IMG/VR virus record: IMGVR_UViG_2571042438_000008
DNA length: 47,797 bases
Strand: one strand, 5' to 3'
Source: a virus
Taxonomy: Duplodnaviria > Heunggongvirae > Uroviricota > Caudoviricetes
Shown here piece after piece: positions 1 through 23,275 of this stretch; the stretch's first letter is position 1; every line of letters begins with the position of its first letter. The notes under the pieces are model-generated. The model was not told the DNA's origin and searched no databases. It was given only the letters and a program-made list of their open reading frames with translations. The position numbers and the translations under genes are program-made.

Positions 1-289
1 GGTTGAAGATGTAGTAAATAGCTTGGGTGGAGAGGTAAACATAACAGAATGGTTTGAAACATCACCACCTGGCGAACCATATACAGCCTCAATTGTTGCT
101 TCGATTAACTCTTTTGATGGTGCTGTTCCTTCGAAAGAGATGTTGGAGGATACGTTAAGAAGTATCAAGAGTGCAAAGTCGGCAAGAACACTATTTACAT
201 TTTCGCAAGCAACCAATGTTTCAGGTGGTGTTGGTATTGTCGGTGCTTTCCAGCCTGTGTCTTATGTACGATTAATTGGTGAGTGCTAA
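1..289 (+). CDS. 3' end of P2 gpI-like baseplate protein gene; continuation of 47254..47797 across the circular junction (1..251 duplicates 47547..47797)
   Basis: In-frame continuation of the ORF open at the window end; motif NITEWFETSPPGEPY resembles the P2 gpI family as recalled; stop at 287-289. Confidence 0.6.
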   Translation, partial: VEDVVNSLGGEVNITEWFETSPPGEPYTASIVASINSFDGAVPSKEMLEDTLRSIKSAKSARTLFTFSQATNVSGGVGIVGAFQPVSYVRLIGEC

Positions 290-319
290 TTTGCGATTTG
301 TTAATCCAAGGAATTAAGC

Positions 320-3166
320 GTGAGTAAATTATTATTTACGATGACTGACGCCGGGCGTAAGGCGCTGGTTAATGCCAACAAGACTGGAACAAATAAAGTT
401 GAGATCGTTTCTGTTGGTTTAGGTAGTAGATATTATGCCACATCAACCACACAAACAAAAATAACAGATGAAATAAAGCGACTTACCACAATAGGAGGCA
501 AAGTCGTTTCTCCTGATACCATTCATGTAACTGCGAAGGATGATAGTAAAGATGAGTATGCTGTCCATACAATAGGTTTGTATACAAATAAAGGAACATT
601 GTTTGCTGTATACTCGCAAGAACAAGTAATAATAAATAAAGCATCTTCTACAATTGCTTTAATATCAAGTGATATAGCAATTAAAAATCTTGATACTAAA
701 AACATTACATTTGGTGATGTTGAGTTTATTAACCCTCCCGCAACCGAAACTGTTGTTGGAGTAGCAAGATTTGCTAATGAACAAGAAATTGATGCAGGTA
801 CAGATGATTCCCTGGCTGTTTCAGCAAAGCGGCTTAAGCAAGCTATTGTAAAACATGAGCAATCACGTAATCATCCTGATGCAACTTTAACATCAAAAGG
901 CATTGTTCAACTCAGTAATGCCACCAATAGCACGTCTGAAAAGCTCGCAGCGACGCCTAAGGCTGTTAAGGCTGCATATGACCTGGCTGACGGAAAATAT
1001 ACCGCCCAGAATGCCACCACGGCACAAAAAGGGATAGTTCAGCTCAGTAGTGCCACTAACAGTACGTCTGAAACGCAGGCGGCAACGCCAAAAGCGGTCA
1101 AGGCAGCAAATGACAACGCAAATTCACGTCTGGCGAAAAATCAGAACGGTGCAGATATCCAGGATAAATCAGCTTTTCTGGACAATGTTGGCGTTACCAG
1201 CCTGACGTTTATGAAAAACAATGGCGAAATGCCGCTTGATGCTGATCTGAATACGTTTGGTCCTGTTAAGGCTTATTCAGGTATCTGGTCTAAAGCAACA
1301 TCCACCAACGCAACACTGGAGAAAAATTTCCCGGAAGATAATGCTGTCGGTGTGCTTGAGGTTTTTGCTGCCGGCAATTTTGCAGGTACGCAACGCTTTA
1401 CCACGAGAGACGGCAATGTATACATGCGTAAACTCGCCAATAAGTGGAATGGCACTGATGGTCCGTGGGGCGTATGGCGTCACACTCAATCTGCTACCCG
1501 CCCTTTGAGTACGACTATAGACCTGAATACGCTTGGAGCCGCCGAGCATCTTGGTTTATGGCGTAACAGTAGCTCAGCTATAGCTTCATTTGCCCGCAAT
1601 TATCCGGAAGAAGGGAGCTATGCTCAGGGGATTCTCGAAGTTCTTGAAGGCGGCGGATATTCGCGAACACAGCGTTACACTACCAGTCGTGGAAATATGT
1701 ATGTACGCTGCCTTACCGCAAGCTGGGATGCATCAAATCCGCAGTGGGGACAGTGGCTAAGAATCGGCAGCCAGACTGCAAGCGGTTTCTTTGAAGGCGA
1801 TCTGAATAATCTGACCGATCCTGGTATTTACAGTGTTACAGGAAAGGCAACAAACGGTCCGATGCTGGACGCTGCTGGGGCGACATTGCTTGGGATACTG
1901 GAAGTAATCAGGCGTTTTGATGGTGTATCTGTCTGGCAGCGTTACACAACCACAGGAAAATCAGAAACCACACAGGGGCGCACTTTTGAGCGCGTCTACG
2001 CCGGGAGCACATGGACCGAATGGCGAGAAGTGTATAACTCCTTTTCGTTGCCCCTGAATCTGGGTATTGGCGGCGCAGTGGCAAAACTCACCAGCCTGGA
2101 CTGGCAGACCTACGACTTTGTGCCGGGCAGTCTGATAACCGTTCGGCTTGATAACATGACCAACATTCCCGACGGTATGGACTGGGGCGTCATTGATGGT
2201 AACCTGATAAACATCGCTGTTGGCCCAAGTGATGATACCGGTACGGGGCGCTCAATGAAGGTATGGCGCAGCACTGTAAGTAAAGCCAACTACCGCTTTT
2301 TTATGGTGCGCATTTCAGGAAATCCGGGAAGCCGCACGATCACAGCAAGACGAGTACCAATCATTGACGAAGCCCAGACATGGGGCGCGGAACAGACATT
2401 CAGCGGTGGTCTTTCAGGCGAACTATCCGGCAATGCTGCTACAGCAACAAAGCTGAAAACGGCAAGGACAATTAACGGCGTAAAATTTGACGGCTCGGCA
2501 AATATTGAAGCGTTTCCGCCAGGTGTTCCGCTGCCGTGGCCATCAGATACGCCACCTGCAGGTTATGCAATCATGCAGGGGCAGACGTTTGATAAGGCAG
2601 CATATCCGAAACTGGCTATTGCCTATCCTTCTGGTGTTATTCCAGATATGCGCGGCTGGACAATCAAGGGCAAACCCGCCAGTGGTCGGGCCGTATTGTC
2701 TCAGGAACAGGATGGCATTAAATCGCACACCCACAGTGCCAGCGCATCCAGTACGGATTTGGGTACGAAAACCACATCGTCGTTTGATTACGGTACTAAA
2801 TCAACGAATAACACAGGTGCACATACCCACAATGTATCTGGTACTGCAAATAGTGCTGGCGCACATACTCATACCGTTCCATTAAGGAGACCAAACAGTG
2901 GCGGTATGAATTTCGACTGGCTGGATGGTTCATCAAGTGGCACGGTGGTGGGGAATGGAACTGTGCCTTCTTCTGGCGCACATACCCACTCAGTATCAGG
3001 TACCGCTACAAGTGCTGGGGCACATGCACACACTGTTGGTATTGGCGCTCATACGCACTCTGTTAAGATTGGTTCACATGGACACACCATCACCGTTAAC
3101 GCTGCTGGTAACGCGGAAAACACCGTTAAAAACATCGCATTTAATTATATTGTGAGGCTTGCATAA
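320..3166 (+). CDS. Tail fiber protein (P2 gpH / Mu S-like), 948 aa
   Basis: Position after the gpJ/gpI baseplate genes; two copies of the phage tail fibre repeat ([25 protein letters not shown]); three beta-rich internal repeats; C-terminal His-rich GAHTH.V repeats. Confidence 0.85.
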
Positions 3167-3783
3167 TGGCATTCAGAATGAGTGAACAATCACGTACCGT
3201 AAAAATTTATAACCTGCTGGCCGGAACTAATGAGTTTATTGGTGAAGGTGACGCATATATTCCACCTCATACAGGGCTGCCAGCTAATTCTACAGATATC
3301 GCCCCACCGGAAATTCCTGCTGGCTTTGTGGCAGTTTTTAACAGTGAAAATGAATCGTGGAATATTGTTGAAGACCATCGTGGTAAAACGGTCTATGACG
3401 TGGCGTCGGGGGACGCATTGTTTATTTCTGAACTCGGACCGCTACCAGAGAATGTCACCTGGTTGTCGCCAGCAGGGGAGTATCAGAAGTGGGACGGCGT
3501 ATCCTGGGTGAATGATGAGGAAGCAGAAAAACTGTTTCGGATACGGGAAGCGGAAGAGAAAAAGGCAAGGTTGATCCAGGAAGCAACAGATAACATCGCA
3601 ATTCTGCAGGATGCAGTTAATCTTGAAATAGCAACAAACGAGGAAAATTCACAACTGGATTCCTGGAGAAAATACAGAGTATTAGTGAGTAGAATTGACA
3701 CCAGTACAGCTCCGGATATCGTATGGCCAGAGCTGATGAATCAGGGTTATGTTCGGGAGGACGAGCAGATAACTTCAGACTGA
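3166..3783 (+). CDS. Tail fiber assembly protein (gpG/Tfa-like)
   Basis: Start overlaps the fiber stop (TAATG); size and position typical of Tfa chaperones. Confidence 0.65.
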
Positions 3784-4310
3784 AATTTAGTGATGAATGT
3801 TGAATCATCAGGAATATCATGCAATACCAATGCATGAGCACCTATTGTGACATTGTTTCCTATACGCACTTTGCCACCAAGAATGGTGGCATTACAACCA
3901 ATGGTCACATTATGCCCTATAACAATATCCATATCATTAAATTCCCCGCGAAGTCCAATAGTTACTCCGGGCTTAATTGAACAATTTTCACCGATTGTTA
4001 CTTTGTGACCGATAACAACACTGTTGAGATAAGAAATATCAAAGCCTTTCCCTATATTTACAGTTAAAGGGACTGTTACATTATATTTATCAAGAATGAA
4101 ACGTTCTATTTTTCCCGCAATCTTCCGACAGTATCCGCCTTTATCAAAAAGGTATTTGGCTATGCGCCACCAAAATAAATAACGAACCCTTCTATGTTTT
4201 ATTGCGCGAACAATTGCCTTTCGCCAGGAGAAAGGACGCTCGCTACCGATTACTTCATAGTGAATACAGTCTTTAAGTTCATTAATATTCATATCTTTAT
4301 TATTCAGCAT
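3747..4310 (-). CDS. Hexapeptide-repeat (left-handed beta-helix) acetyltransferase, moron-like
   Basis: Repeated [LIV]-G-x-x-x-x hexapeptides ([47 protein letters not shown]); opposite strand to the tail operon. Confidence 0.6.
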
Positions 4311-4725
4311 AAGATAATCATGTGACCAATTATTGTAATAATTTTAATGGTATGTTTCTACTGGCTATCCAGCGTGTCTGATATCCAGTAACAAATCGTC
4401 AACACGGGTGCAATCAAATGGTGAGTGTTAAGACTGACCACTTATTACCAGGTATGAGTGGCCAGCATTAAATCAGAACAGCCCTTTAACTGAACTGGCC
4501 GCGCTGTTAAGGGATGATGTCACCTTATCTTTGAAGCCGGACAGCATATTGCTGAACGATGAGTTTACCGCAGGTTTCTGGCTGGGAATCATTGACTGGA
4601 GTTAGGCCAGTAGTATGATGCTCGCAAAACGAGATCCAATTTAGATCCTTTTACTGGTGGATTATCGTTCGATCAGTGAGAGACTTCGTGCATGACCGAA
4701 AGTGTTGTGGTAGAGTTCTCTTAAA

Positions 4726-4740
4726 ACCACGTAACGTGGT
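4726..4740. promoter_or_regulatory. Repressor-type operator dyad ACCACGTAACGTGGT in the repA upstream region
   Basis: Perfect 5-N5-5 inverted repeat identical in arms to the three dyads in the cI/cro-like intergenic region; followed directly by TATGAT (4741-4746). Confidence 0.5.
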
Positions 4741-4780
4741 TATGATTGTGGGTGTCTGGTTGGAAAGTGACCAGATATGG

Positions 4781-4861
4781 AAACAAAAAGCCCGCAGATA
4801 AATCTGCGGGCTTCTTGCGACATCCACGGAAAACCAACAACTAACCATGGGCGCCTCGACA
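4781..4861 (-). ncRNA. Candidate CopA-like antisense RNA of the repA leader (~80 nt)
   Basis: Minus-strand perfect -10 TATAAT (plus coords 4868-4873) with weak -35; minus-strand intrinsic terminator (10-bp GC-rich stem 4789-4812 followed by a U-run); lies inside a 16-bp inverted repeat of the leader (4823-4838 / 4875-4890). Confidence 0.45.
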
Positions 4862-4905
4862 ACTCCCATTATACGTTGGTTTTCCGTGGACGCAAGAGCG
4901 AACAT

Positions 4906-5754
4906 ATGGATAGACCAATGCCGTCTCTACGTTCAGCTTACGTTTGTAATTTGTCGCCGGAGTTCCAGCCTCCAAAGCACCATACGCACAAGCTGCCGCT
5001 GGTGTTATCTGATGCTTTACAGCGCATTAATGGGCGTGATCTTACGTGTGAGGTTGCGTTCTACGTTAATCAACCGTCAGAGCGGAAGCGCCGGATAAAC
5101 GAGCATCGTCGTCGGGCGATTAATGCTGTGATCGCTGCGATTTTGCACCATGTAAACATCATTTCTAAGCGGGTTCTGGCCAGTGCTGAGGCGTTGGCTG
5201 ATTTTTGCGGCCTGTCTACCGTATCCGAAGCTGGGAACAAGTCTATAACGCGCTGTACAAGGGCGTTGTCGCAACTGAAAGCGTTAGGTTTTATTGATTA
5301 TGAACGTCGCTGGGATCGGGTGAATAAACAGTATTGGCCAGCGAAAATAGAGATTCGTGATCAACTGCTGGAAACCGTTGGTATTACTGAACAAGCATGG
5401 AGACGTGCGGTTAGCCAGAAACTTAATTACTTCAATGCGAAGAATAGCGAACGGCTTAAAAAAGCGATAACGGAGGCTGATTATAAGCGTATTGTTATTC
5501 AGGAGCAGATGGAGAATGTATGGCATCAGAGGAAGACGGCCAGAGAGATAAAGGCAAAACAGAAAGCAGCGGAGAGAGCTGCGCGTCTTGTTCGGGAAAA
5601 GGGAGAGGCCGAACTTCGTCATCAAATCACTAGAGAGGTTAGCCAGGAATTTGCTGATGGCATGTATCCTGGAGCTGACCTTGCATATTTACGATCCCTC
5701 GTTGAGCAGCGTTATAACAGGTTAAGAAAGACCTGGAAATCACTCCAACATTAA
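4906..5754 (+). CDS. repA: Replication initiator RepA, IncFII (RepFIIA) family
   Basis: Translation aligns with R100/R1 RepA1 as recalled (RRRAINAVIAAIL..., SITRCTRALSQLKALGFIDYE vs SITRATRALTFLSELGLITYQ); start chosen at the in-frame ATG 4906 by length; the ORF is open upstream to 4777. Confidence 0.85.
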   Translation: MDRPMPSLRSAYVCNLSPEFQPPKHHTHKLPLVLSDALQRINGRDLTCEVAFYVNQPSERKRRINEHRRRAINAVIAAILHHVNIISKRVLASAEALADFCGLSTVSEAGNKSITRCTRALSQLKALGFIDYERRWDRVNKQYWPAKIEIRDQLLETVGITEQAWRRAVSQKLNYFNAKNSERLKKAITEADYKRIVIQEQMENVWHQRKTAREIKAKQKAAERAARLVREKGEAELRHQITREVSQEFADGMYPGADLAYLRSLVEQRYNRLRKTWKSLQH

Positions 5755-11399: not shown

Positions 11400-11658
11400 T
11401 CGAGGCTAATCAAATGGTGGTGAGCCGTACAGGGTTAGCCTTACCGGACACAATGACGAACCGGCGCGGATTTCTCCGCCCCTGTACGACCCACCATAAT
11501 TTGGGCGTAACAGTGCTCTACGCATAAAAAAACCGCTAACGCGGTATGCGCCATCGTGTTATTCAGGAGGCTAATCCCGGCCGTAGATTTTGCTACGGCT
11601 CGGAAAGTGTCCACCAATGGCGCATTTATGTCAATACGGCGGGATTTTAACAGAGACA

Positions 11659-11673: not shown

Positions 11674-12116
11674 TTTATTGGTAGGCAGAAACAAAAAAAC
11701 CGCCCTATTGAGGACGGTTCTTTCGTGCTGATCGGATTCGCGGTCCTTTCAGCATTACGTTGTTGTATAAACAACCACGCAAGCACAAGCAGCAAGTTAA
11801 TTTTACCCAAAAGGTAATAATAGTCCACTATTATGCTTCAAAAAATTGTGGTTCTTGTTGTGCCTGCAAACTCACAGATTGTGGGTAGGTTACTGATTTT
11901 GTGAAAATAAACGAGTTTTTTCGTTTAATTTCTTTCCTATTACTAATCTTAAAATAATCGTAAAATACCTGTGGACCTTCCCGCCGATTCGCACCCGGGC
12001 ACCGACTTTAGGGGAGGATTCTCCGTTGCCGTACATGCAAGCACAAGCAGCCGTGCTTGCTCTCGCGTTGTTTTCGTCGGTGGGGATGCCGTGAAACGGC
12101 CTGTAAGGGCCATACA

Positions 12117-12239
12117 ATGAAAAAATACTGTATGTGTATTTTTATCGTTGTTACTGGGGCTTTGTTTACGCCACATGGGGAGGGTTGGAAGATTACTGAT
12201 AACGCTCTGAATGTGACGATAAACATTAGCAGCAAGTAG
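12117..12239 (+). CDS. Small hydrophobic peptide (40 aa; MKKYCMCIFIVVTGALF...)
   Basis: ATG 12117 in an otherwise ORF-poor, hairpin-rich region; followed 7 nt later by a strong intrinsic terminator. Confidence 0.3.
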   Translation: MKKYCMCIFIVVTGALFTPHGEGWKITDNALNVTINISSK

Positions 12240-12245
12240 CGATTA

Positions 12246-12268
12246 GGCCCCTTCGGGGGCCTTTTTTT
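12246..12268 (+). terminator. Rho-independent terminator
   Basis: GGCCCC-TTCG-GGGGCC stem-loop followed by T7. Confidence 0.8.
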
Positions 12269-23199: not shown

Positions 23200-23275
23200 G
23201 GCCCCTTAGCTCAGTGGTTAGAGCAGGCGACTCATAATCGCACGGTCATCGGTTCAAATCCGGTAGGGGCCACCA
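23200..23275 (+). tRNA. tRNA with CAU anticodon (Met or Ile2/lysidine type), 76 nt including CCA
   Basis: Cloverleaf elements readable: acceptor GGCCCCT/AGGGGCC, D-arm AGCTCAGTGGTTAGAGC, anticodon loop CTCATAA, T-arm GGTTCAAATCC, 3' CCA; close to E. coli tRNA-Ile2 as recalled. Confidence 0.85.

Follow-up and report, generated by a model that had tools for sequence, protein, structure and literature searches.

The window analysed here, a stretch of 47,797 nucleotides, is a complete ~47.8-kb E. coli phage-plasmid, and the fibre encoded near its start is very probably a receptor-binding mosaic belonging to a P2-like contractile-tail phage-plasmid, built from an anchor, a shaft, four knobs, a linker and a tip of the T4 gp37/lambda Stf type. 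The gene joins an N-terminus of the plasmid's own family, knobs of Peduovirus gene H, and a P1-like tip that is followed by a tail fibre assembly chaperone (Tfa) gene and an acetyltransferase gene. The tip family and its modularity have already been published (PMC9659904), the fibre itself is already annotated, and the underlying biology is that of textbooks. The locus offers a clean natural example of a tail-fibre mosaic in which the recombination junctions can be read straight from the sequence.

The phage-plasmid and its fibre gene

The element encodes an IncFII-type RepA at 4777-5754 (Pfam E=1.2e-43). P2-like tail and baseplate genes close a run of large intact open reading frames (ORFs) at the 3' end of the window and continue round to a gpI fragment at 23-289. 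The baseplate J/I module, at 95% identity or more, is common to 59 PLSDB plasmids of 46-52 kb. Assignment of the window to the family of pSLy3 was considered and found unsupported, the pSLy3 group being part of the SSU5 supercommunity.

The fibre gene is preceded by the sequence AAGGA, 8 nt 5' of its GTG start. NCBI already holds the identical 948-aa protein, annotated as 'tail fiber protein', and the ORF matches PHROG 295 of the same name with E=4e-221. Promoter and terminator scans of positions 1-5200 gave matches at chance level only, and an Rfam search of the fibre region returned zero RNA family matches. The features of the locus and the segments of homology that cross it are collected in Table 1.

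Table 1. Segments of homology and features of the fibre locus, in window coordinates
Feature	Position	Strand	Basis or remark
Match to the 48.5-kb plasmid of ATCC 25922, same family	1..1114		92% identity
Match to Peduovirus P24E6b gene H	1023..2475		91% identity
Match to P1-like IncY plasmid pHYEC7-mcr1 (tip, tfa and convergent acetyltransferase)	2534..4380		93.8% identity
Renewed match to the ATCC 25922 plasmid	4564 onwards		98.5% identity
Tail fibre gene	320..3166	+	948 aa, GTG start; ORF list, PHROG 295, identical NCBI protein
Putative N-terminal baseplate-anchor region, aa 1-186	320..877	+	specific to the ~48-kb plasmid family; within the window 1-1114 match
Two Phage_fiber_2 shaft repeats, aa ~187-230 and 233-274	878..1141	+	Pfam PF03406, DNA repeat, Mu S match
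Predicted knob domain 1 (K1), aa 301-392	1220..1495	+	repeat alignment and fold
Predicted knob domain 2 (K2), aa 393-485	1496..1774	+	repeat alignment and fold
Predicted knob domain 3 (K3), diverged copy, aa 486-575	1775..2044	+	K2/K3 z=5, K1/K3 z=2; confident beta model
Predicted fourth knob-like domain, aa 576-690	2045..2389	+	recognised by fold alone
Conserved linker NAATATKL…INGVKFDGS	2390..2521	+	knob/tip recombination junction
Collar domain, aa 735-800	2522..2719	+	Pfam PF07484; 77% identical to T4 gp37 over aa 732-800
Ascending needle strand, HxH 1-3 (His 803/805, 835/837, 849/851)	2720..2872	+	72.5% identical to T4 gp37
Putative head (receptor-recognition) insert, aa 852-887	2873..2980	+	11% identical to T4 gp37; hypervariable
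Descending needle strand, HxH 4-7, and invariant C-terminus	2981..3163	+	75% identical to T4 gp37
Tail fibre assembly chaperone Tfa	3166..3783	+	start overlaps fibre stop; Pfam Caudo_TAP E=1.1e-39
Hexapeptide-repeat acetyltransferase	3747..4310	-	convergent with tfa, 37-nt overlap; Pfam Hexapep
3' remnant of a Cin/Gin-type DNA invertase gene (VYRRFLAGNH*)	4563..4592	+	tblastn, last 10 residues

Mosaic structure

Homology along the locus changes source abruptly. The BLAST boundaries are sharp, with similarity to Peduovirus H stopping at 2475 and similarity to the P1-like plasmid beginning at 2534. The second Phage_fiber_2 repeat contains one junction and the NAATATKL…INGVKFDGS linker the other; the linker motif matches again elsewhere in the P1-like fibre and has low pLDDT in the monomer model. 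In other plasmids of similar size, divergence sets in at nt ~650-1114 of the gene. At least 80% of the fibre plus tfa is carried by at most 19 PLSDB plasmids, with or without the shared backbone, as against the 59 that carry the baseplate module.

Each of the exchanged parts is also found in other combinations. The knob module has also been joined to gp37_C tips, to Gp34_trimer plus Peptidase_S74 tips and to Collar/HxH tips, and it occurs on a genuine P2-type N-terminus as well. The same tip is found on the fibres of lambda-like, P1-like, P2-like, T4-like and Klebsiella phages, where the head alone is hypervariable. The first-pass annotation had suggested that the modular layout reflects host-range swapping, and this is supported by the sharp mosaic boundaries, by the pairing of the knob module with at least three other tip classes and by the occurrence of the tip on many fibre types.

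N-terminus, shaft and knob domains

Residues 1-186 are likely to form the baseplate anchor, a function suggested by their position and by comparison with P2 gpH. The Pfam model Phage_tail_fib (PF12571) scores 20.1 bits (E=6.7e-4) against the fibre N-terminus, below its 23-bit cut-off, while true P2-type H proteins score ~194 bits. Beyond the anchor, Phage_fiber_2 (PF03406) matches with E=4.3e-41 and 138.7 bits (cut-off 22) in two tandem stretches. The Pfam unit spans 42 aa with a conserved core of ~29 aa, and the two diverged ~30-aa fibre repeats that had been proposed from the first reading are real and lie close to where they were placed. Their DNA copies, at 895-982 and 1027-1114, form a direct repeat of 88 nt that is 80% identical at a spacing of 132 nt, and an alignment of the two copies as protein scores z=19.9 relative to shuffled sequence. 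Residues 213-296 match the tail fibre S of phage Mu (5YVQ/8JU3, E~1e-15).

The middle of the fibre is poorly represented in family databases: residues 295-715 gave zero Pfam matches even at E<=10, and neither the fibre nor Tfa had any NCBIfam match. A search with the same residues recovered 264 matching cluster representatives out of 1.84 billion at E<=0.001. Repeat alignment of K1 with K2 gave z=30, and K3 aligned with z=5 to K2 and z=2 to K1, which points to two clear copies of a beta repeat and one strongly diverged copy. An AlphaFold monomer model of this region, made with 34 diverse homologues, is confident (pLDDT 84) and mostly beta, and in a Foldseek search with it the R1 and R2 pyocin fibres (6CL5, 6CL6) ranked top. 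The knob fold described for R-pyocin fibres (PMC6116203), an antiparallel sheet of five to six strands with covering loops, arranged in tandem, was found in fold searches with the monomer models. On these models, each of the three sequence repeats is a knob domain like those of R-pyocin fibres, and the predicted knob-like domains number four. The three beta-rich internal repeats noted earlier therefore stand as sequence repeats, and the count of domains has to be raised by one that is recognised by its fold. A lectin foot was considered for aa 576-690 and was rejected in favour of the fourth knob-like domain on the basis of fold searches.

The His-rich tip

Residues 716-948 match chain residues 16-242 of 2XGF_A, the crystallised fragment of T4 gp37 (residues 785-1026), with a phmmer E-value of 2.7e-82 against the PDB, and 144 of the 233 residues (62%) are identical. 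The Pfam Collar model (PF07484) matches aa 735-782 with E=3.3e-10 and 40.2 bits (cut-off 24), and Phage_fiber is a further Pfam match of the protein beside Collar and Phage_fiber_2. Judged by this alignment, the segment is a homologue of the iron-stapled receptor-binding tip of T4 gp37.

Seven HxH motifs begin at aa 803, 835, 849, 888, 902, 911 and 920, an array far beyond chance. They are confined to the tip, with none in the rest of the fibre, and hold 14 of the 20 histidines of the protein. Five of the seven have the form GAH[T/A]HxV, and the segment that contains them spans aa 803-948; the first-pass annotation had recognised the motif and set the length of this C-terminal segment at ~130 aa, where it is 146 aa. 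A DNA repeat (2816-2878 and 2975-3037) mirrors the paired HxH units on either side of the head.

All seven motifs align one to one with T4 HxH at 883, 915, 929, 966, 980, 989 and 998, and H849 is aligned with T4 H929, an iron ligand. In the needle of T4 gp37, HxH triplets contributed by three chains coordinate iron, with seven atoms along the needle (PMC6957217). The first reading had pointed to metal coordination by HxH arrays in the T4 gp37 tip when it proposed that the tip here may be metal-stabilised. The 2XGF match and the seven-for-seven alignment of the motifs support metal stabilisation of the present tip by strong homology. T4 residues 933-953, which contact LPS and OmpC by mutagenesis and are located in the head (PMC6957217), map onto the aa 852-887 head of the fibre, which is likely to be the receptor-contact part here as well.

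Conservation across the wider family was assessed in an alignment of eight tips, from the window fibre, a P1-like plasmid, two lambda-like phages, Fels-1, a Peduoviridae phage, T4 and a Klebsiella phage. The collar, the stems and the C-terminus are conserved among the eight, and the head differs from tip to tip in length as well as in sequence. The histidine columns of HxH 1, 2, 6 and 7 are conserved in all eight tips and those of motif 5 in seven, while the flanking residues vary. The head of the window fibre is identical to that of P1-like pHYEC7-mcr1.

Chaperone, acetyltransferase and the probable loss of an invertible switch

The Tfa encoded directly downstream of the fibre is 81% identical to the lambda-type Tfa of HK630 and 53% identical to ORF5 of phiNP. 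Its identity to T4 gp38 is 28% (E=7e-20), and its C-terminus matches Mu U (5YVQ_B). The convergent acetyltransferase falls under every NCBIfam cut-off, with EpsC, CysE and WcaB nearest, and it matches PHROG 2154 with E=7e-79. In pHYEC7-mcr1 the acetyltransferase lies within the same 93.8%-identical block as the tip and tfa, and more distant homologues occupy the same convergent position in phiNP and in P1-like JL22.

On the plasmid of ATCC 25922 the corresponding locus has the order fibre-tfa-tfa(-)-recombinase-repA, which is an invertible switch of the Mu/P1 type. When the recombinase of that plasmid was used in tblastn against the window, only its last 10 residues (30 nt) matched. No inverted repeats bracketing the fibre segment were found in the window, nor was a second tfa or an alternative tip on the opposite strand, where the gene that follows tfa is the acetyltransferase. 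An invertible host-range switch is thus rejected for the window, and the specificity of its fibre is fixed. Because the invertase is reduced to its last 10 codons and bracketing inverted repeats are missing, the tip block appears to have replaced the switch.

A more speculative suggestion is that 2534-4380, with its tip, Tfa and acetyltransferase genes, constitutes a mobile three-gene host-range cassette that has displaced invertible segments in at least two phage-plasmid backbones, the acetyltransferase modifying the surface sugar of the lysogen that the tip recognises. We regard this as unlikely. If true, the cassette would couple receptor specificity to superinfection exclusion, and the sugar would belong to the LPS core, the O-antigen or the capsule.

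Variation among relatives and alternative explanations

Close relatives of the fibre were sampled as the 119 top-scoring full-length matches, 94-100% identical to it, a set biased in favour of proteins that carry this tip. Positions at which the window fibre differs from the majority of these relatives cluster in aa 424-575 and 630-691, that is in knobs 2, 3 and 4. The window departs from most of its close relatives from aa ~424, within knob 2, the differences are densest in knob 3, and the tip (aa 716-948) is nearly invariant. The idea that the tip alone might vary among relatives therefore holds for the head in the wider tip family and fails for this closest set, where knobs 2-3 and the fourth domain differ.

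Such a pattern gives some weight to a different division of labour, in which the knobs, chiefly 2, 3 and the fourth, would bind receptor or saccharide and set fine host range, and the tip would make a conserved secondary or irreversible contact, in a two-site binding as proposed for R-pyocin fibres. It accords with the mapping of R1/R2 pyocin diversity to Knob2 and the C-terminal domain and with the binding of sialic acid by a knob-like domain of the K1F endosialidase (both PMC6116203). Weighing against it are the skew of the relative set towards the same tip and the resemblance of the clustered knob differences to one recombination tract, as opposed to a series of independent changes. The receptor contacts of T4 lie in the head (PMC6957217), and it is the head that is hypervariable across the wider tip family, both in the eight aligned tips and in published work (PMC9659904). 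We therefore consider knob-determined host range possible but somewhat unlikely. The head may nonetheless not be the sole determinant of specificity, and the knobs could contribute to it, as has been proposed for pyocin Knob2.

A second alternative is that the element is defective or domesticated and forms no infectious particles, its host-range architecture being a functionless relic. In its favour, the records searched document no isolated virion of the window's family, and the locus no longer has its invertase. vB_EcoM-613R2, the nearest record listed as a phage, is a prophage predicted by computation and was rejected as proof of real virions. Against this reading, the ORFs of the fibre, of Tfa and of the baseplate genes upstream are all intact. 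The window carries a run of large intact ORFs, and for the tail and baseplate portion of this run a close relative has a gene-by-gene annotation. Full-length relatives of the 948-aa fibre, more than 100 in number, are conserved at 94-100% identity on contigs of about 47-49 kb, and the top matches are free of truncations with the exception of one 901-aa entry. A functionless relic is, on this evidence, quite improbable.

The notion that the HxH array is a mere low-complexity repeat of Gly, Ala, His and Thr with no role in metal binding, to which the internal repetition of short DNA units might lend itself, is almost certainly wrong, as each HxH is matched, position by position, to an iron-coordinating HxH in the crystal structure of T4 gp37 and the histidine columns named above are kept across unrelated phages while their flanks vary.

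Proposed model and implications

The favoured reading, a receptor-binding mosaic with a tip of the gp37/Stf type, leads to the following model of the fibre. By homology, the protein would most likely act as a homotrimer whose N-terminus docks on the baseplate and continues into a thin shaft bearing the two Phage_fiber_2 repeats. The shaft would be followed by four tandem knob-like domains, the conserved linker and the T4 gp37/lambda Stf-type tip. Within the tip, a collar would give way to a six-stranded needle, in which each chain is expected to run outward, make the small head and return. Along the trimer axis, the seven HxH of each chain would create seven His6 metal sites of octahedral geometry, occupied by iron in T4, that hold the needle together like staples. 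Receptor specificity would reside in the ~36-aa head, which separates HxH 3 from HxH 4. Judging from characterised members of the family, the fibre probably recognises a sugar of the LPS core, an outer-membrane porin or both. The lambda-type Tfa would serve as the folding chaperone on which the tip presumably depends. The gene was probably put together through recombination at conserved linker motifs, the tip block having replaced an ancestral Mu/P1-style invertible segment together with its invertase.

The ~48-kb IncFII-type and the P1-like IncY phage-plasmid families exchange the same tip and chaperone block. For host-range engineering, the fibre adds another head variant to the well-understood gp37 scaffold, and its practical value is limited.

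Comparison with known systems

The G-segment switch of Mu and the C-segment switch of P1 (S/U, S'/U', Gin/Cin) resemble the window in the type of locus and in a Phage_fiber_2, Mu S-like shaft, and in P1-like JL22 an acetyltransferase homologue adjoins stf-tfa inside a locus of the invertible type. The window differs from these switches in being without an invertase, a second tfa, an alternative tip and flanking inverted repeats.

The R-type pyocin fibres (PA0620; 6CL5, 6CL6, 6CU2) consist of two knobs, a shaft containing a single iron, and a foot resembling a lectin, whereas in the window fibre four predicted knob-like domains lead into a collar and needle of the gp37 type. Zero Pfam or sequence-level matches link the two.

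The gpH proteins of P2-like phages (P24E6b and the Yersinia vB_YpM phages) share the central part of the fibre. Window 1023-2475 (aa ~235-719), which includes the second fibre repeat, the four knob-like domains and the linker, is 84-92% DNA-identical to their genes. Unlike the window fibre, these proteins have their own P2-type N-terminus (PF12571, E~1e-57), and the H of the P24E6b type ends in a gp37_C tip rather than in a Collar/HxH tip.

T4 gp37 (2XGF) and lambda Stf share with the window fibre the collar, a six-stranded HxH needle, a head, the seven HxH and the invariant C-terminus, as well as a gp38/Tfa-type chaperone gene directly downstream and divergence confined to the head. At 11% identity the head of the window fibre is unrelated to that of T4, which it exceeds by 2 residues in the alignment, and the T4 receptor can therefore not be assumed for it. 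The present tip sits on the baseplate fibre of a P2-like phage-plasmid, in contrast to the long tail fibre of T4 and the side fibre of lambda, and its chaperone is of the lambda type (81%) and not of the gp38 type (28%). This arrangement corresponds to the 'T4- and lambda-based RBP family' of Magaziner and Salmond (2022), in which a receptor-specific insert of 30-70 aa lies between conserved parts of the tip and the chaperone gene follows directly downstream (PMC9659904).

Variation within the tail fibre

When the 948-aa tail fibre was compared with 119 near-identical relatives (its top-scoring full-length matches, 94-100% identical), about 45 positions were found at which most of the relatives depart from the window, all of them in knobs 2-4 and spanning aa 424-691 (nt ~1589-2392). 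Outside aa 424-691 the fibre, including its T4 gp37-like tip, is almost invariant among these relatives. The clustered differences look like a recombination tract within the knob module.

Tandem Phage_fiber_2 repeats, spaced at 132 nt in the shaft N-terminal of the knobs, number four to five in the fibre of the sister plasmid from E. coli ATCC 25922 (L002 6576-7049) and two in the window, and the repeat array is both variable in copy number and a recombination junction. The sister plasmid also carries an intact invertase (compare L002 10595-11149) and a second tfa on the opposite strand, an arrangement that is an invertible fibre segment, whereas only the 3' end of the invertase gene persists in the window. 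Window positions 4381-4563 matched none of the loci compared.

Features located in the window
Feature	Position (nt)	Strand	Remarks
Hexapeptide-repeat acetyltransferase	3747-4310	-	Pfam Hexapep; convergent with tfa
Cin/Gin-type invertase gene, 3'-end remnant	4563-4592		30 nt
Strong hairpin 1	4784-4817		16-nt arms, 94% complementarity, 2-nt loop
Strong hairpin 2	4823-4890		16-nt arms, 100% complementarity, 36-nt spacer
C4 antisense RNA	11413-11501	-	Rfam, gathering level
isrK Hfq-binding RNA	11526-11599	-	Rfam, gathering level
ryfA RNA	11971-12267	+	Rfam, gathering level
tRNA-Met (CAT) gene	23200-23275	+	

Replication region and probable immunity region

Both hairpins fall within the annotated 5' end of repA, the IncFII-type replication gene, and the Pfam IncFII_repA match to its product does not begin until aa 52. 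Hairpin 1 is followed on the minus strand by TTTTTG. Together the hairpins resemble the stem-loop and terminator found in a CopA-like antisense control RNA, but an Rfam search returned no match at these hairpins. Further along the window, the C4, isrK and ryfA matches all lie inside ~900 nt. C4 antisense RNA is the P1/P7-type immunity RNA, and the cluster probably marks where the phage-plasmid has its immunity/antirepressor region.

Acetyltransferase gene beside tfa

The 3' ends of the acetyltransferase gene and of the chaperone gene tfa overlap by 37 nt. The acetyltransferase belongs to PHROG 2154 ('unknown function') and fell under all NCBIfam cut-offs, the nearest families being EpsC, CysE and WcaB. 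The gene may serve in lysogenic conversion or receptor modification. In the P1-like plasmid pHYEC7-mcr1, a single 93.8%-identical block holds the acetyltransferase together with the tip and tfa. Homologues that are 39% (Citrobacter phage phiNP) and 36% (P1-like JL22) identical to it are likewise convergent with tfa and adjoin it, but that of ESSI2_ev015 lies away from the fibre.
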